A model generated the notes under the pieces. It was given only the letters and a program-made list of their open reading frames with translations, was not told the origin of the DNA and did no database searches. From an uncultured Candidatus Sumerlaeota bacterium (GTDB lineage: Bacteria; Sumerlaeota; Sumerlaeia; SLMS01; JAHLLQ01), in contig CAZOKZ010000006.1 of NCBI GenBank assembly GCA_964580585.1, positions 45,492-109,491 on the forward strand: 64,000 nt of DNA, given 5' to 3'. Shown piece after piece: positions 3,793-57,661 of this stretch. The position numbers were made by a program, and so were the translations under genes. Within the stretch, counting starts at the first letter, position 1, and every line of letters starts with the position of its first letter.

Positions 3793-4711
3793 TCGATTGT
3801 TCTGTGGTTTGGTGTGGTTGCTTGTCTTGTAAAACGTAATGAACGATGAGTTTCTCGTAGGCGCTATCGGCTTTTTCGAGAGATTTTTGGTAACGGCGAA
3901 TCAGGAAGGCGCGCGCCTGCTTGCGCGTCAGTTGAGTCAGGCATCCGATAGTGATGAAAAACGCGGAGAGCACGGTCAGAACACTGTGGCGGTTGAAGTA
4001 ATTCACGAGTCCTTGAGGAAGGAAGGCGGCGCCGATTTCGAAGATCACCGTGAGAAAAATTCCGATCAACGTGAAGACAAAGACGGCAGTTATCATCCAA
4101 GGAATGAGGGAAAGAAATTGATCCATCGTGGTGGTAATGGTGTGGCGCAGCTTGGGGCCGAGTTCAATGGGTGTCAGCCATCGATCGATAGGAACCATCA
4201 CGAATTGTTGGCGAGCGGTTTCGATCCCGAGGATGAAGGCGAAAAAAAATACCTGCCAGACGAAGTAGGCGGTGGCGAGAATGAAAACCAGATGCATCAG
4301 GCTGAGAGTTCGATCGAAAAAAGACGCTGCCACGATCAATAGGTATGCAATGACCGCGAACCACTCCGATTGTTTCCACATCAAGCGTCCTTCGAGATAT
4401 AAAGTTTCAACGATGTCGCGTCCCGTGTTGGGAGTTAACCAGATGTCGGTGGCGGCCTGAAGAAGAATGCCTTTTTCAGAGTAAACGTCCGAAAGTCTGC
4501 GGGGCAGAAAAGGGGTCAAGTTGCGTTTGTCCCAGCGACCAACGCCTGGGGCTTTTGACGGGGCAAAAAATTTTCGTCCGTGAACTTTGCGACGGCGGTA
4601 GAAGGCCTGGAACAGGCAATTGGTTTTTTCGGCGTCAAGTGTTGGGTCGTTGCGTCGCATCCATTCGGAGAATGCAGGCGGAGTTTCAGTTTCGGACGAG
4701 GGTTTGACCAT
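3785..4711 (-). CDS. multi-pass membrane protein, paralog C
   Basis: Start taken at the internal ATG (MVKPSSETETPPAFSEWMRRNDPTLDAEKTNCLFQAF...GRDIVETLYLE...). Its stop overlaps the start of paralog B by 8 nt (ATGCCTGA). Confidence 0.55.
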   Translation of the reverse strand: MVKPSSETETPPAFSEWMRRNDPTLDAEKTNCLFQAFYRRRKVHGRKFFAPSKAPGVGRWDKRNLTPFLPRRLSDVYSEKGILLQAATDIWLTPNTGRDIVETLYLEGRLMWKQSEWFAVIAYLLIVAASFFDRTLSLMHLVFILATAYFVWQVFFFAFILGIETARQQFVMVPIDRWLTPIELGPKLRHTITTTMDQFLSLIPWMITAVFVFTLIGIFLTVIFEIGAAFLPQGLVNYFNRHSVLTVLSAFFITIGCLTQLTRKQARAFLIRRYQKSLEKADSAYEKLIVHYVLQDKQPHQTTEQSNA

Positions 4712-5719: not shown

Positions 5720-6583
5720 TTGATTTCGAGGTTGGAGATGAAGGTCATTCACGGCACGATGCAGGCAGTGCATTCGGCGTTTTTGAACGAAGAACCGTTG
5801 GGGTTTCGCGAAGGCGTTCAGGCGCTCTTTCGCGGTGTTCAATATTTAATCGCGAGACCGCATTATCTGGCGGTTTGCGCAGCACCGTGGGCGTTGAACC
5901 TGATCGTTGTCGGGCCGATTGTGGCGATATTGCTCAAATTTCTGGTTTACGATTGGGTGGTTGGATGGGCACCGGACCAGGATGTCTGGTGGGCGACGGC
6001 CATCGAGGTCGCTCTGCGTATTTTTATCCTGCCGACGTTGTTTGCCGTTTGGGTGGTGGTGTTTTTGCTGATGTCGATGGTGGTGGGGGCGCCTTTTCAC
6101 GATAAACTGGGCGAGTTGATCGAGCAGGAGGAATTCGCTGGGCGTCCGGATTTGCTGGCACCGTCGATGCCGCTGTGGGTGGGGGTGCGGCATGCGCTCG
6201 TCGAAGCGTTGAAACGCGTCGGGGTTTTGATTCCCAGGTTGGTATTGGCGTTGTTCCTGGGGGTGATTCCGTTGGTGGGTCCGTTGATTGTGATGGTGGT
6301 TGATTTTTTTCTGGCGGCAGGATTCATGACGCTCGATGCGTTCAGCATGCCGATGGATCGGAGAGGAATTCCGCTCGAAGAAAAAATCCGTTGGGTAAAA
6401 TCGAATCGGCGGTTCGCGTTGGGATTTGGGCTGCCGCTGCTGGTGTTGCCGTGCGCGTTTTTCCTGATGCCACCGTTGGCGACGGCAGCGGCGACGTTGG
6501 TTTATTGCCGGTATCGATTGCGGGAGGAAACGCAGGTGGGGACGGAAGAAAAAGCAGGAGCTGAAAGGCAAAAGGCTGAATAA
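5720..6583 (+). CDS. EI24/CysZ-like (DUF540) inner-membrane protein
   Basis: Four hydrophobic segments. Signature motifs resemble E. coli CysZ (G..Y..ARP.., ..APFHDKLGELIEQEE versus CysZ AAPFNGLLAEQLE). Confidence 0.55.
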   Translation: MISRLEMKVIHGTMQAVHSAFLNEEPLGFREGVQALFRGVQYLIARPHYLAVCAAPWALNLIVVGPIVAILLKFLVYDWVVGWAPDQDVWWATAIEVALRIFILPTLFAVWVVVFLLMSMVVGAPFHDKLGELIEQEEFAGRPDLLAPSMPLWVGVRHALVEALKRVGVLIPRLVLALFLGVIPLVGPLIVMVVDFFLAAGFMTLDAFSMPMDRRGIPLEEKIRWVKSNRRFALGFGLPLLVLPCAFFLMPPLATAAATLVYCRYRLREETQVGTEEKAGAERQKAE

Positions 6584-14695: not shown

Positions 14696-14772
14696 TGGTG
14701 GGTGATACTGGACTCGAACCAGTGACCTCTGCGATGTGAACGCAGCGCTCTAACCAGCTGAGCTAATCACCC
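14696..14772 (-). tRNA. tRNA-Val (anticodon CAC), CCA encoded
   Basis: Reverse complement GGGTGATTAGCTCAGCTGGTTAGAGCGCTGCGTTCACATCGCAGAGGTCACTGGTTCGAGTCCAGTATCACCCACCA folds as a cloverleaf with CAC in the anticodon loop. Confidence 0.85.
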
Positions 14773-30207: not shown

Positions 30208-30965
30208 ACGAGGAAATTATTCGATACGACGATGTGAGTGTTTATTACGGCGATGTGAAAGCCGTCGGTCATGTGTCCGCCGATATTCATTGCGGCAGTC
30301 TGATGGCGATTGTCGGTCCGAACGGCGCAGGGAAAAGTACGCTATTGCGTGCAACGCTCGGATGGTTGCCTTTGACCACGGGGCGCATTACACTTGGTGA
30401 CGATCACATTGAACACCAACGTCCACGTCTGGCATACGTGCCGCAGCGATTAAAACTCGATTGGGATTTTCCCGCGACGGTTCGTATGGTGGTCGAACAG
30501 GGACGCTATCCATTGCTGCGGTTTTGGCGGGGTTTTACCAAAAAAGATCATGCGTTGGTCGATGCCGCGCTCGAAGAAATGGGCCTCGACAAGGTGCAGA
30601 ATCGCCAGATTGGCGAGCTTTCCGGTGGTCAGCAACAAAAGGTTTTCCTGGCGCGCGCCTTGGCTCAGGGCGCGGATATTTTTTTGCTCGATGAACCGTT
30701 CGAGGGGCTGGATGCGACAGCCATGGACGGGTTAGTGCAAACGTTACGCAGTTGGCATGGACAGCATCGGACCATTCTGGCGGTGGTGCACGATCACGCG
30801 TTGGTACGAACGGCGTTCGACCAGGCCATGTTGCTCAACACCGATCTGGTGGCGATGGGCAAGGTCGCCGAGGTCATGTCGTCGGAAAATCTGGAACGTG
30901 CCTACCCGAAAGGAACGCCGCATACGACCGCCGCGATGGCAGAAGGCGGCCATGTGCATGTCTGA
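30204..30965 (+). CDS. znuC: zinc ABC transporter ATP-binding protein
   Basis: Walker A GPNGAGKST, signature LSGGQQQKV, Walker B IFLLDEP. Confidence 0.8.
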   Translation: MNEEIIRYDDVSVYYGDVKAVGHVSADIHCGSLMAIVGPNGAGKSTLLRATLGWLPLTTGRITLGDDHIEHQRPRLAYVPQRLKLDWDFPATVRMVVEQGRYPLLRFWRGFTKKDHALVDAALEEMGLDKVQNRQIGELSGGQQQKVFLARALAQGADIFLLDEPFEGLDATAMDGLVQTLRSWHGQHRTILAVVHDHALVRTAFDQAMLLNTDLVAMGKVAEVMSSENLERAYPKGTPHTTAAMAEGGHVHV

Positions 30966-31839
30966 GTTCGTTCAGTTTTTTACCGAGCCGTTTCAGTATC
31001 AATTTATGTGGCGGGGGTTGCTGATCGCTACATTTCTAGGCATTAGTGGTGGATTGCTTGGGTGTTTGCTTGTCACGCGGCGTATGGCGTTGATGGGCGA
31101 TGCGCTTGCGCACAGTTTATTGCCTGGTGTCGGTATCGCTTACCTGTTGTTTGGGCCGGGATTGTGGTCGTTGTTTGGCGGTGCGTTGGTGGCGGGATTA
31201 TTGACTGCCGTGGGCAGCACGATTTTCAGCCGCTTGACGCGTGTGAAAGAAGACGCGGCTTTTGGCGCGCTGTTTATTTTGTTTTTTGGCTCTGGCGTTG
31301 CGCTTGTCAGTGCCACGCGTTCAGCGGTTCGTGTGGATTTATTGCACTTTTTGTTCGGTAATATTCTCGGCGTCAGTTCGTCGGACCTTTGGCTCGCGGC
31401 GGGGGCGAGCACATTGACGCTCGCGGTGTTCGCGCTTTTCTATCGCAACATTTTGATCCAATCGTTCGACCCGATTTTTTACCGCGCTTCGGGATCGAAC
31501 AACGGACTGATGCAAGCAGGCTTGCTTGCGCTGATCGTGATCAATCTTGTCGCCGCGCTTCAAGCCATGGGGATTGTGTTGGCACTCGGGTTGTTTCTTC
31601 TACCGGCGGTCACGGCGTCGCTTTGGTGCGAACGCTGGGGGGCGATGCTGGCGTTTTCTTCGGTGCTGGCCGTGGTGGGAGGAATCGTTGGTTTGCTGCT
31701 TAGTTTTCAGCTTCAAATTCCTTCGGGGCCAAGCATCGTTGGAGTGCTGGGGACGGTGATGTTACTCTCGGCGGTCTTCAGCGTTAAGCATGGAATGATG
31801 CGGTATTTCCTGCACCCCTCCAAACGGCCCACGCGGTAA
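30958..31839 (+). CDS. znuB: zinc ABC transporter permease
   Basis: MSEFVQFFTEPFQYQFMWRGL... matches the ZnuB N-terminus. 8 TM. Start overlaps the znuC stop (ATGTCTGA). Confidence 0.8.
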   Translation: MSEFVQFFTEPFQYQFMWRGLLIATFLGISGGLLGCLLVTRRMALMGDALAHSLLPGVGIAYLLFGPGLWSLFGGALVAGLLTAVGSTIFSRLTRVKEDAAFGALFILFFGSGVALVSATRSAVRVDLLHFLFGNILGVSSSDLWLAAGASTLTLAVFALFYRNILIQSFDPIFYRASGSNNGLMQAGLLALIVINLVAALQAMGIVLALGLFLLPAVTASLWCERWGAMLAFSSVLAVVGGIVGLLLSFQLQIPSGPSIVGVLGTVMLLSAVFSVKHGMMRYFLHPSKRPTR

Positions 31840-31843
31840 TTTG

Positions 31844-33220
31844 TTATAATCCAAAACTACCCACTGTGGGGAATTCTTTCCAGATCACCTCAATAACTCG
31901 GTAAGATTCATCGGGTTGTTGTTGAATCCTCAGCTTAACGATCATGATCGGTTCGCCAGCCGCTCCCATCAGGGTCGTTTCACCTACATAAATCTTTTTT
32001 TGCTCATCCTGAATCGCTGTCGTTAAGCCCGCGGCACTGCTCATCGTGCTGATGTTGCCGTTCTTTTCCCAGTTGGTGATGGATTCCAACATCGTTCGCG
32101 TCCCGTATGCGCCAGCATCCGTGGTGTAGGATAACGCCGTGGTCATATCGTGATGCACAACGGATTCGATATAGAGTTGCGCCGCGCCACTTGCTGTCTG
32201 GTCCGTTTTAGGTGTGACAAAAAGATGATGCACCAACTTGTAACCGAAAATCGCTCCGCCAATCATCGCCGCGATAACGATTAGCAGCTTCAGAAACACG
32301 ATGAAAATTTTCCCACCGCCCGATGACGACTTCGCGGGTTTGCTCTTGGTCGGTTTTACCGCTTTCCCTTTTGCGGCATTTTTATTGCGAGCCTTCGGAT
32401 TTTTCTGCATCTTGCGAAATTGCTTCAAATCCTTTTCTGCTTCGTTGCGCACCCATCGTTTAATGGCGGTGTCGAACATATGGGGAGCAAGATAATCGCT
32501 GCCTTGAAAACGATCAGCGGCTTTCAGCACTTCGATCAATTTCGGTGCGGGCAGCAATTGCTCCAGTGCCGCGATTTCATGAGGCATCTGGTAGTCGCCG
32601 GTCAGAATGTCGCTCAAAATCCAAGCCAACGAGTATGTGTCTGCGTTCATGTTGACTGGATCGGTGCTCGCCGCCAATTCCGGCGCAGTATATCGTCCGT
32701 TGGCAAGAAGCCGGGCTTGATCGGTGATACCGGGAAAAATGGGTAACAGACGCCATGGCGTGTTCGGTTTTTTCGCGTCGTAAAAAATCGTATCGGGTGT
32801 AATACCGACAGGCATAAGCGACATGTTGAACATACTGAGCAACGTTTCGCAAATCCCCGATCCCCATTTCATCAAGCTCGTGGCATCGACGACCTTCTCG
32901 TCGTTGCTGGCAAACTCGCGCAGCGTTTTACCGCCCGGGTCTTCTGTCAGCAGGTAAGGGATAGCCGTATCGGTGGAGATCTTATGGATTTGCAAGATGC
33001 CCTCGGAGGACATGATGCCTCCGGCTTTCCATTTTTCCAGATAAGGTAAAGCTTTCTTGAATCCAGCAATTCCAACCGCCGATGTGAACGCAACGAAGAG
33101 CACGGCGCCGTGCTGCTCATGTTCGGCGCGCCACACTTCGCCCCAACATTCTTCAAAAACGAATCGTTGGGTTACCAATCCCTGATCCGGAACTTCGCGT
33201 CCCGGTTGACACATCGGCAT
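31844..33220 (-). CDS. membrane protein with N-terminal Ser/Thr-kinase-like (probably pseudokinase) domain
   Basis: Kinase-like fold with APE motif (YTAPELA) and a D in the catalytic-loop position. Degenerate Gly-loop, no VAIK lysine or DFG. Then a K-rich linker, a TM (IFIVFLKLLIVIAAMIGGAIFGY) and an extracytoplasmic C-domain. Confidence 0.5.
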   Translation of the reverse strand: MPMCQPGREVPDQGLVTQRFVFEECWGEVWRAEHEQHGAVLFVAFTSAVGIAGFKKALPYLEKWKAGGIMSSEGILQIHKISTDTAIPYLLTEDPGGKTLREFASNDEKVVDATSLMKWGSGICETLLSMFNMSLMPVGITPDTIFYDAKKPNTPWRLLPIFPGITDQARLLANGRYTAPELAASTDPVNMNADTYSLAWILSDILTGDYQMPHEIAALEQLLPAPKLIEVLKAADRFQGSDYLAPHMFDTAIKRWVRNEAEKDLKQFRKMQKNPKARNKNAAKGKAVKPTKSKPAKSSSGGGKIFIVFLKLLIVIAAMIGGAIFGYKLVHHLFVTPKTDQTASGAAQLYIESVVHHDMTTALSYTTDAGAYGTRTMLESITNWEKNGNISTMSSAAGLTTAIQDEQKKIYVGETTLMGAAGEPIMIVKLRIQQQPDESYRVIEVIWKEFPTVGSFGL

Positions 33221-33748: not shown

Positions 33749-34588
33749 TCAAGTGCCCGGTTTATTCAGTGCGGGTCGATCAAAAACCATGCGATTCCAG
33801 TCGCTCTCGAGCGCTTCGCGTGCCACGGGTGGCAGTTCAACCGTCATGTCCATTTGAAGCAGCGACAAGGAAGCCCATTTCTCCTCCAGCGCCAGGTCGT
33901 CGCTGTTTTCGGGCTCGGGCGATGTTTCCAGATGCGCACCGACATTCGTGTAAAACCGTCGGCCATTTTCCTCGCGCGTCAAACGGATGTCATCGACGAA
34001 AAACGACGTGCCCTGGTGCGTGCACCGAATGCCACGTACATCCTCGAATGCTAAATTAGGCACGTTCAAATTCCAGAACGTGCGCGGTTTCCAATTTTGC
34101 GTCAATAACCAGGGCAGCAACCCGCGCACGACGCGCGCCGCTGTCGCGAATTTCAGCGGCGGGTCCTTCTTGTGAGAGAGCGAAACCGCCATCGCTTTCA
34201 GCCCGAACATCGTGGCTTCCAGCGTCGCCGCCACCGTGCCCGAATACCAGACCGAATTGCCGATATTGTTACCGTGATTAATGCCGCTCAAAACCAAGTC
34301 CGGTTTGAAATACGGCAACGCCTGGAGCGTGAACTTAACGCAATCGACCGGGTTGCCATCCACGGCATAGCCCCACACGCGGCCGTTTTCCGTGCGTTCC
34401 TCAACGGCCATTTCGCGATGCAGCGTCAACGAACATCCCGTGCCCGATTTCTCGCTCATGGGTGCCACAACCAACAAGTTGCACAACGGCTCGATTTCCC
34501 GCCGCAGGGTCTGCAAGCCCTTGGCATCAATGCCATCGTCGTTGGTCAGAAGAACGTTCGCGCGAGAATGGTCGATTGGGGTCGTCAA
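33749..34588 (-). CDS. surE: 5'/3'-nucleotidase SurE
   Basis: NVLLTNDDGIDAKGL and GINHGNNIGNSVWYSGTVAA motifs. Confidence 0.85.
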   Translation of the reverse strand: MTTPIDHSRANVLLTNDDGIDAKGLQTLRREIEPLCNLLVVAPMSEKSGTGCSLTLHREMAVEERTENGRVWGYAVDGNPVDCVKFTLQALPYFKPDLVLSGINHGNNIGNSVWYSGTVAATLEATMFGLKAMAVSLSHKKDPPLKFATAARVVRGLLPWLLTQNWKPRTFWNLNVPNLAFEDVRGIRCTHQGTSFFVDDIRLTREENGRRFYTNVGAHLETSPEPENSDDLALEEKWASLSLLQMDMTVELPPVAREALESDWNRMVFDRPALNKPGT

Positions 34589-34739
34589 CGGGGGAAGGCT
34601 CCTTGGCAGGTGAGTGCGTCAGCACGCGCGGGAGTTTTGTAGAGCGGGCGACGGGACACAAGGGGAGAGCGGACCCAACTTCCCCATTGACGGGAGGCGC
34701 CTGCGCGGGTGTACCTCGTGTTCAGCAATGGTACATCGG

Positions 34740-35040
34740 GCGGCAGGCTTTGCGCCGCGCGATGTTCAAGAGGGAATCCGGTGAAAATCCGGAACTGCCC
34801 CGCAGCGGTAAGTGGAAACGACCGCCGTCATGAAGCACTGGTTCGATTTGAACTGGGAAGCGACGGCCAGTAGGCCAGGAACTCCTCTCGGTTCCCAATC
34901 TCGGCGTTGCGCATCGGTCTCGGGCTCGGTCACGTACTCAAAACGTACGCTCCCATCGCCTTCGCCTCGCGCGTCTTGATCTTGGAAACCTGAGAAGTTC
35001 CGAATATAATGTCCACAAGTCCGAAGACCTGCCATTGTTC
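34740..35040 (+). promoter_or_regulatory. cobalamin (AdoCbl) riboswitch
   Basis: AGGGAATCCGGTGAAAATCCGGAACTGCCCCGCAGCGGTAAGTGG...CACTGG...ACTGGGAAG... and 3' CCGAAGACCTGCC align closely with the E. coli btuB leader. Lies 5' of the plus-strand gene starting at 35102. Confidence 0.8.
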
Positions 35041-35101
35041 CGGGCGGCGTATGCCACCCGGCAACATTCGATCACTCCTTCGTGGGAAAGGGAAGATCGC
35101 C

Positions 35102-35800
35102 ATGGTCTCTTCAAAGCTCAAACTCCGTTGTTTTACCCTGATTGAATTGCTGATTGTCGTCGCCATTGTGGCGATTCTGGCAGCGATAGCGGTCGTTAAT
35201 TTCCAGGAAGCCCAGGAGCGCGCGCTTCGCGCTTCCGATGCTGCGAACATGAAGACAATCGGCGTGGCGCTTCAGATGTACAAAACCGACTTCAATCGGC
35301 TTCCGCCTGCCGATCGCGAGGCGGGTCCGTTTATGTCGCATTACACGAGCGTTTTCGCCGTCGGCAACGGTCCGGCGGGGGGCGGTTCGTGGGATGGCGT
35401 GCCCTGGTTGTTGATCGAACGCGGGTATATCAACGACTGGAAGGTCTTGTTTTGTCCAAAGTACCTTAAACTGTATCGCAACGTCGGAACGGTAGGGGGG
35501 ACCGAGTATCCTCGGTACCATAATTTCCGTTACGCGTACAACAGTTCGGGCCTTTCTACGGGTGGCGCATTGGGCGGCGCGGGAAATGTGGAAAGCGGCA
35601 CGGTCTGGATTCTCCGCGACCTGTGGGTTCCGCCCGACAAGGGATGGTATGGTGGCGATTACCCTGATTACCCGGCGGATTTCCGTTTTCCCTGGGGGAC
35701 TGGTGATGAAGAAGACAACGTCGAACACGTGATGGGGGCCGACATGTCGGTGCGACTGGTTATAGGTGGCACGGAGGAAATTCCCGAGGTCACGAAGTAA
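35102..35800 (+). CDS. prepilin-type N-terminal cleavage/methylation domain protein, DUF1559-like
   Basis: SD GGGAAAGGGAAG. N-terminus MVSSKLKLRCFTLIELLIVVAIVAILAAIAVV is a class-III signal. The remainder is typical of the planctomycete DUF1559 family. Confidence 0.7.
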   Translation: MVSSKLKLRCFTLIELLIVVAIVAILAAIAVVNFQEAQERALRASDAANMKTIGVALQMYKTDFNRLPPADREAGPFMSHYTSVFAVGNGPAGGGSWDGVPWLLIERGYINDWKVLFCPKYLKLYRNVGTVGGTEYPRYHNFRYAYNSSGLSTGGALGGAGNVESGTVWILRDLWVPPDKGWYGGDYPDYPADFRFPWGTGDEEDNVEHVMGADMSVRLVIGGTEEIPEVTK

Positions 35801-35960
35801 TCACCGCCTGCTGTGTTAGCGCTTTTACTTTCTCTCTCCTTCCTGCTTGCATCCGCGTGGGGGAGGGCTGAAAGATTCCCGTCGATTTGACCCCGCGTGG
35901 GCGACAAGGGGTATTTCCGTGGATGATCCGCAAGCAGCCAATGATCGCTTGGCGACCAAA

Positions 35961-36233
35961 ATGATGCGCATGGATATCAATCGTATCCTTCAGCGTTGGG
36001 ACCCGTTGTGTATCAAGGGCCTGCCTGGCGCGGACCGTGAGTACGAGCAATACATTGGTCCGTTGCTGATCATGGTGAAGAAACAATCCGACATGATGGA
36101 AATCGCACGCCATCTCGATCAATTGATGACCGAAACGTGGCGTTTGCCGCGCAACAAGCAGCAATGCGTTGATGTGGCGCGCAAGATTTACAACGTCGGG
36201 TCGATCTTTCGCGGCGAAACTACCACCGAGTAA
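35961..36233 (+). CDS. small hypothetical protein
   Basis: ORF only (MMRMDINRILQRWDPLCIKGLPGADREYEQY...). Start chosen at the internal Met. Confidence 0.3.
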   Translation: MMRMDINRILQRWDPLCIKGLPGADREYEQYIGPLLIMVKKQSDMMEIARHLDQLMTETWRLPRNKQQCVDVARKIYNVGSIFRGETTTE

Positions 36234-57530: not shown

Positions 57531-57661
57531 GAGACCGAGGGAGCGGACAACCGGACCGTTCGCGCACCCGGAACGGAAAACTTATGGCTGCTTCCTTCCG
57601 GATCTGACCAGGTTCGTCGCCGTCCGTCGCGCGGAGCCCGATTGTCCGCTCCGCCGGTCTC
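57531..57661 (-). ncRNA. ffs: signal recognition particle RNA (4.5S RNA)
   Basis: Minus-strand CCUGGUCAGAUCCGGAAGGAAGCAGCCAUAAG matches the domain IV motif of E. coli 4.5S (CCAGGUCAGGUCCGGAAGGAAGCAGCCAAGG). Ends pair as a long hairpin (GGAGCGGACAA/UUGUCCGCUCC). Confidence 0.8.

Follow-up and report, generated by a model that had tools for sequence, protein, structure and literature searches.

The closest known system to the one described here is the Btu relay of Bacteroides, in which loci for vitamin B12 (cobalamin) uptake comprise riboswitch-controlled BtuB, the accessory B12-binding lipoproteins BtuG (a β-propeller), BtuH and BtuJ (DUF4465), and BtuFCD (PMC6143338, PMC10404256, PMC8941943, PMC13616437, PMC13398666). 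We report a module of similar outline in Sumerlaeota (BRC1). In a 64-kb stretch of DNA from this phylum (hereafter the window), a cobalamin riboswitch of Rfam family RF00174 occupies the leader of a gene encoding a 232-residue type IV pilin-like protein. Judged by gene order and regulation across 40 related loci, the pilin-like family is probably a conserved component of a Sumerlaeota corrinoid-acquisition module. The kind of riboswitch is known; what is new is its target in B12-uptake loci, a pilin-like core component.

A complete cobalamin riboswitch precedes the pilin-like gene

Searching the window with Rfam cmscan yielded a single cobalamin match, on the plus strand and ending 52 nucleotides (nt) before the start codon of the pilin-like gene (Table 1). 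The match scored 85.7 bits (gathering score 31.5; E = 1e-19) and spanned model positions 1–189 of 189, with the core helices P3–P6, loops L4 and L5 and the B12 box all present. An earlier note, made by reading the sequence, had proposed such a riboswitch on this strand from five motifs shared with the btuB leader and had suggested RF00174 as the check. The score lies well above the threshold, and all five motifs were found in place: GGTGAAAATCC (34780–34790), GCAGCGGTAAG (34802–34812), CACTGG (34836–34841), GGGAAG (34855–34860) and CCGAAGACCTGCC (35021–35033). The note had also considered surE as an owner of the aptamer and thought it unlikely. We agree: surE lies on the minus strand and is transcribed away from the plus-strand aptamer, which rules out the aptamer as its leader.

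A P6-extension region together with a B12 box is characteristic of class-I riboswitches of the adenosylcobalamin (AdoCbl) type. Both features are present here and point to that class, and the RNA is predicted to bind cobalamin and to switch expression. Except for one long insertion, it is an ordinary member of RF00174.

This insertion of 134 nt relative to the Rfam consensus accounts for the excess length of the window aptamer, which at 338 nt is the longest of 35 compared; the 22 full-length aptamers of related loci measure 169–230 nt (median 208 nt). Folding of 34878–35014 gave a self-contained, long and irregular hairpin (−45.5 kcal/mol, z = −3.5). The insertion is present once in the window, which argues against a repeated mobile element, and recurs in a Logan assembly of the same locus (L041; related loci are numbered with the prefix L), possibly from the same sample. 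Within it lies a sigma-70-like promoter match on the plus strand (34982–35010; TTGGAA, 17-nt spacer, TATAAT; 10/12), which, if used, would give transcripts without the 5′ half of the aptamer.

An aptamer of this length, with a promoter-like site inside its insertion, could mean that the riboswitch is decaying or bypassed and that the gene is effectively constitutive. We regard this as highly improbable, however. The aptamers of related loci score 61–116 bits, and because the window aptamer falls inside this range it shows no sign of decay. Its core helices, B12 box, L5 and Shine-Dalgarno (SD) hairpin are all intact, and the insertion forms an independent hairpin at a site where the model tolerates insertions. 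Promoter-like matches in the region also occur at chance level (2 found; 1.0 ± 1.2 expected).

The expression platform sequesters the ribosome-binding site

The interval between aptamer and start codon contains a P13-like hairpin. The 3′ arm of its core stem, AAGGG (35088–35092), is the 5′ half of the SD region, and G35095 opens the outer stem. The folding energy of the hairpin alone is unexceptional (z = −0.07), and its support is comparative. A hairpin of the form (G)CCUU-CG[ACU]GGGA-AAGG(C) occurs 10–40 nt 3′ of the aptamer in at least ten related loci and is kept irrespective of which gene comes first. Other loci carry compensatory variants (CUUCUU/AGGAAG, GCCCU/GGGGC and CUUCUC/GAGAAG), which bear out the SD-sequestering hairpin that had been suspected from the window alone.

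A kissing contact between L5 and the loop of this hairpin (L13) is the known layout of translational cobalamin riboswitches. The two loops covary across loci: CCCC in L5 accompanies GGG in the platform loop in the window and in L005, L009, L014, L021 and L023, ACGCG accompanies CGCG in L017, and GUC accompanies GAC in L033. No terminator-like site was found between the aptamer and the ATG, which rules out a transcription-terminator platform; control is therefore probably translational.

In one related locus, L005, a 19-codon upstream open reading frame (positions 4245–4304; MERLAESDSAGFDFCHNGK, then a stop) begins directly 3′ of the SD hairpin. Its stop overlaps the ATG of the pilin-like gene at 4294, and it may represent a locus-specific form of coupling.

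The target is a pilin-like protein with a lineage-specific head

The encoded protein consists of a 10-residue leader, a cleavage-site-like RC/FTLIE, a 52-residue α1 helix and a lineage-specific head of ~170 residues. Its N-terminus, MVSSKLKLRC/FTLIELLIVVAIV, is of the prepilin type. It scored 22.9 bits against NCBIfam TIGR02532 (cutoff 16.3) and 19.9 bits against Pfam N_methyl PF07963, slightly under the cutoff of 21.2; N_methyl matches at E ≤ 0.1 were obtained for all 78 family members. A profile of the 78 homologues matched solved pilins and pseudopilins, namely geopilin (6.6e-15), M. xanthus PilA (5e-11) and GspG (1e-8), with the matches confined to the α1 helices (positions 12–70). In the AlphaFold2 model (predicted local distance difference test score, 87.6; predicted template modelling score, 0.84), a helix spanning residues 13–64 packs on a globular, mostly irregular head, as in the pilin fold. 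The architecture of the protein is pilin-like.

Prepilin motifs have Gly (rarely Ala) at position −1, Phe at +1 and Glu at +5. Glu +5 is present in 78 of 78 family members and Phe +1 in 70, and the window protein has both. Residue −1 (codon 10, 35129–35131) is Cys in the window only; of the 77 aligned relatives, 46 carry Ala and 31 Gly at this position. This Cys may affect processing by prepilin peptidase. Cleavage by the peptidase and assembly into a filament are possible, since type IV pilus genes were reported in all Sumerlaeota metagenome-assembled genomes (PMC8092238).

The ~170-residue head matched no solved fold, every B12-binding protein in the PDB included, and had no similarity in sequence or fold to BtuF, BtuG or the DUF4465 proteins BtuH and BtuJ. 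It defines a small family: at 50% identity, a set of 1.84 billion proteins contains only 28 representatives of it. Strongly conserved motifs are GNGPAAGGSWDG.PWLL, PR[YF]HNFRYAYNS and PADY.YPW, and H140 is invariant. Further invariant positions are H80, W97, W102, W169, Y60, Y109, Y144, D63, D71, R143 and R172.

No Pfam or NCBIfam model is specific to the family. In sources, its members are named 'prepilin-type N-terminal cleavage/methylation domain-containing protein' or 'type II secretion system protein', and the window protein fell far under the cutoff of all specific pilin and pseudopilin models of NCBIfam. GspG TIGR01710, for example, has a cutoff of 88.85 bits; the protein reached 37.7 bits, over residues 9–70 only. 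The earlier note had called the product a DUF1559 prepilin-type protein; the prepilin part of that description stands and the DUF1559 part does not. The DUF1559 profile (PF07596, SBP_bac_10) matched at positions 1–50 of 268 only (24.9 bits; cutoff 23.3), and 46 of the 78 relatives show a weak N-terminal match of the same kind (E ≤ 0.1; best E, 1.7e-5). As the remaining ~220 profile positions are unmatched, canonical DUF1559 membership is ruled out.

By eye, a C-terminal β-hairpin at residues 205–222 (about 35714–35767; vEHVxyADxaVRtVvGG) resembles the 'NvlFaDGSVrfi' of DUF1559/H-X9-DG proteins. This likeness hints at a distant shared origin with replacement of the middle region, with no support from a model-based test.

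Related loci place the family in riboswitch-associated operons

All 40 genome loci encoding the family are in Sumerlaeota/BRC1 metagenome-assembled genomes. The SurE protein encoded next to the aptamer in the window has named matches of at least 51% identity that all belong to Sumerlaeota, with ~40% identity to other phyla. On these two grounds, we assign the window by sequence to a Sumerlaeota bacterium, and the planctomycete setting supposed in the earlier note is excluded.

A same-strand RF00174 aptamer lies 5′ of the pilin-like gene in 30 of the 40 loci. It is immediately adjacent in nine (the window, L005, L009, L017, L018, L021, L033, L036 and L039); in the remaining riboswitch-positive loci it lies 1–3.9 kb upstream, with same-strand genes between. 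The most distant detectable relatives (33–38% identity; L045/L046 and L047) also bear the riboswitch. Ten loci are riboswitch-negative, among which L002, L007 and L022 end at contig edges. Six others (L013, L020, L027, L032, L035 and L037) retain 6 kb or more of sequence upstream, with no aptamer in it even at E ≤ 0.1, and their regulation must differ. In two of these, L027 and L032, a BtuF-like gene is still found directly downstream of the pilin-like gene.

Mapping of homologues across the loci resolved a common order: riboswitch, then C6, C5 or another protein, then C1, the pilin-like gene and a BtuF-like gene. The first position after the riboswitch is taken by C6, a PQQ_2/BamB-like propeller, in seven loci, by C5 (~380 residues) in five, and otherwise by several other unknown proteins. 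C1 is a secreted seven-bladed β-propeller of ~450 residues encoded immediately 5′ of the pilin-like gene in 20 of the 40 loci. Its similarity is to generic propellers only, which rules it out as a BtuG homologue. At 12 of 17 junctions examined (near locus position 6000), the C1 stop and the pilin-like start overlap by 4 nt (ATGA) or 8 nt (L001, L003, L004, L008, L014, L015, L019, L025, L029, L031, L034 and L038). Such overlap suggests that the two proteins are translationally coupled and may be made as a stoichiometric pair.

Immediately 3′ of the pilin-like gene, 11 of the 40 loci encode a BtuF-like protein (Peripla_BP_2; best NCBIfam match BtuF, 2.4e-27). Same-strand matches to ATP-binding cassette (ABC) ATPases are present in nine loci and to FecCD permeases in six. 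A 614-residue open reading frame in L021 that seemed to fuse the pilin-like protein with BtuF proved to be an artefact of out-of-frame read-through; the genes are adjacent and separate. The suggestion that the pilin-like protein may be part of a B12-uptake apparatus thus gains strong comparative support, from a riboswitch in three-quarters of the loci and BtuF, ABC ATPase or FecCD genes downstream in up to 11. The neighbourhood of btuB- or btuF-like genes, which the earlier note had left to be checked, divides by locus: neither is present in the 64-kb window, and the BtuF-like gene directly follows the pilin-like gene in the 11 related loci. The same holds for the combination of a cobalamin riboswitch with btuFCD, which the family shows in related loci and not in the window itself.

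An envelope protein with a pilin scaffold might itself carry the vitamin inwards. A retractile type IV pilus or a pseudopilus like that of the type II secretion system, with the pilin-like protein as a major, minor or tip-associated subunit, could work with the propeller to pull corrinoids across the outer membrane and so replace TonB-dependent BtuB. The head of the pilin-like protein would then be a novel corrinoid-binding domain, and the subunit, coupled to the propeller, would pick up corrinoids extracellularly or in the periplasm and pass them on to BtuFCD. Competence pili, which take up DNA, offer an analogy. Nevertheless, we consider corrinoid uptake by a pilus improbable. In Pfam searches of the 114 other same-strand open reading frames in or after the operons, no family of TonB-dependent receptors, Plug domains, secretins or pilus-assembly proteins recurred, each listed family occurring in only one or two frames; nor does an assembly ATPase or platform gene recur. 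BtuB is possibly encoded elsewhere in Sumerlaeota genomes. For a filament subunit, a head of 170 residues is large. In related phyla, simple membrane anchors very commonly take the form of prepilin-type N-termini, and the Cys at −1 in the window protein may prevent cleavage.

Acido-Lenti-1 RNAs (RF01687) scored above the gathering threshold at two sites in the related loci, L022:600–646 and L029:11263–11309, both on the minus strand. The RNA in L022 lies between the C1 propeller gene and the pilin-like gene, on the strand opposite to them.

A proposed role in corrinoid acquisition

The conserved place of the family between secreted propellers and BtuFCD suggests a role in capturing or relaying corrinoids. 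We propose that the pilin-like protein belongs to the envelope, is repressed by B12 and acts in corrinoid acquisition upstream of BtuFCD, and put the probability of this reading at roughly 0.7 from the sequence comparisons above. When AdoCbl is plentiful, the aptamer would bind it, and the bound ligand would stabilize the kissing contact of the CCCC in L5 with the GGG in the platform-hairpin loop. This contact would lock the SD hairpin and keep the pilin-like protein from being translated. Under B12 scarcity, the protein would be made and would enter the envelope through its prepilin-type N-terminus, either to be anchored in the inner membrane by its pilin helix or to form a short (pseudo)pilus. 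There, together with its propeller partner, it may capture corrinoids or relay them to BtuF–BtuCD.

Direct binding of corrinoids by the head is a plausible but tentative part of this proposal. Regulation and synteny tie the gene to B12 status only, and a B12-repressed protein that binds no corrinoid would satisfy both. One candidate role is that of an adhesin or attachment pilin bringing the cell near B12 producers; another is that of a factor that assembles or anchors the propellers, which would be the true binders. The coupling with C1 is equally consistent with an anchoring role, and the high-affinity binder of Bacteroides, BtuG, is itself a β-propeller (PMC6143338). We judge a role without corrinoid binding unlikely, and favour B12-repressed corrinoid acquisition, in which the position next to the BtuF-like gene would reflect participation in the relay.

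Surroundings of the gene in the window

The window contains no homologues of C1, C5, C6, BtuF or FecCD and no btuB-like gene, and the pilin-like gene is here a stand-alone riboswitch target. The coordinates of the features are collected in Table 1.

Table 1 Features of the riboswitch, its target gene and the flanking genes in the window
Feature	Coordinates	Strand	Basis or remarks
RF00174 aptamer, complete, P6-extension region included	34713..35050	+	cmscan
P5/L5 (CUGCCCCGCAG); C-rich loop, proposed kissing-loop partner of L13	34795..34805	+	Alignment structure line, cross-locus covariation
134-nt insertion relative to Rfam consensus, P6-extension region, 3′ side	34879..35012	+	Unaligned insert in cmscan
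B12 box (AGUCCGAAGACCUGCC)	35018..35033	+	cmscan alignment and sequence
P13-like hairpin: core stem UCCUU/AAGGG (35076–35092), loop CGUGGGA, outer stem GAUC/GAUC	35070..35098	+	Minimum-free-energy structure
Shine-Dalgarno region (AAGGGAAG), 6 nt 5′ of ATG	35088..35095	+	Sequence and fold
Gene for 232-residue type IV pilin-like protein	35102..35800	+	ATG 35102, TAA 35798–35800
surE	33749..34588	−	Divergent from aptamer
Small open reading frame, 104 residues from GTG or 90 from ATG 35961	35919..36233	+	Gene call in L041

The small open reading frame that follows the pilin-like gene had been thought possibly co-regulated with it. It has no Pfam or NCBIfam match and no homologue in the 40 related loci, and we doubt that it belongs to the regulated unit. 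A GH31 α-glucosidase gene lies 3′ of it.

On the other side of surE, a 458-residue open reading frame (31844–33220, minus strand) has no Pfam domain and weak kinase-like NCBIfam matches (MAD6, 1.6e-6; PknB-type, 1.2e-5). It sits between surE and a metal ABC transporter (ATPase match, 30258–30896; ABC-3 permease, 30757–31839). Elsewhere, cmscan detected a bacterial small signal recognition particle RNA (57546–57643, minus strand). The window also holds six tRNA genes, at 14699, 60234, 60431, 62898, 63000 and 63829, five of which cluster at 60.2–63.9 kb.

Comparison with known systems

No paper linking a cobalamin riboswitch to a pilin-like gene was found in the open-access literature or bioRxiv, and the family is likely a previously undescribed part of B12 scavenging. 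Together with its propeller, it would belong to the core of the B12 regulon in an uncultured, globally distributed phylum. If the head binds corrinoids, both its B12-binding fold and this use of the pilin scaffold are new, and the question arises of how B12 passes the envelope without BtuB. Should corrinoids be taken up by a pilus after all, the protein would be the first of the pilin family to be devoted to taking up a vitamin, in the role that TonB-dependent BtuB and its lipoprotein partners have in Proteobacteria and Bacteroidota.

At the level of RNA, the nearest counterpart is the leader of E. coli btuB, a translational RF00174 riboswitch with an L5–L13 kissing loop. Both have a full-length aptamer with B12 box and P6-extension, both place the SD in a P13-like hairpin with a loop complementary to L5, and both occupy the leader of a gene that belongs to a B12-acquisition module. 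The window aptamer differs in its 134-nt hairpin insertion, and its target is pilin-like, unlike the known targets btuB, btuFCD, the cob genes and B12-independent isozymes.

At the level of protein, the family shares with type IV pilins and pseudopilins of the type II secretion system (PilA, GspG and ComP) the short basic leader, Phe +1, Glu +5, the hydrophobic N-terminal half of α1 and a 52-residue α1 followed by a globular head, and its best structural matches are pilins. The Sumerlaeota head, however, is larger (~170 residues), mostly irregular, without a conserved disulfide and unlike any known pilin head. The DUF1559 prepilin-type proteins of Planctomycetota have the prepilin-type N-terminus in common with the pilin-like family, which is limited to Sumerlaeota, with only 28 clusters at 50% identity.

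The Bacteroides Btu loci remain the closest parallel as a system. In both, a riboswitch regulates lineage-specific secreted accessory proteins, a seven-bladed β-propeller among them, together with a BtuFCD-type importer. In Bacteroides too, attention was first drawn to uncharacterized accessory genes by their location in B12-riboswitch loci; riboswitch-guided discovery in this way yielded BtuG, BtuH and BtuJ, and the same logic leads here to the Sumerlaeota family and its coupled propeller. The two differ in that the Sumerlaeota operons have no recurrent BtuB or other TonB-dependent transporter, and in that their accessory protein is of the prepilin type where those of Bacteroides are lipoproteins. 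None of the Sumerlaeota accessory proteins is homologous to a Bacteroides one, and C1 is not specifically BtuG-like.

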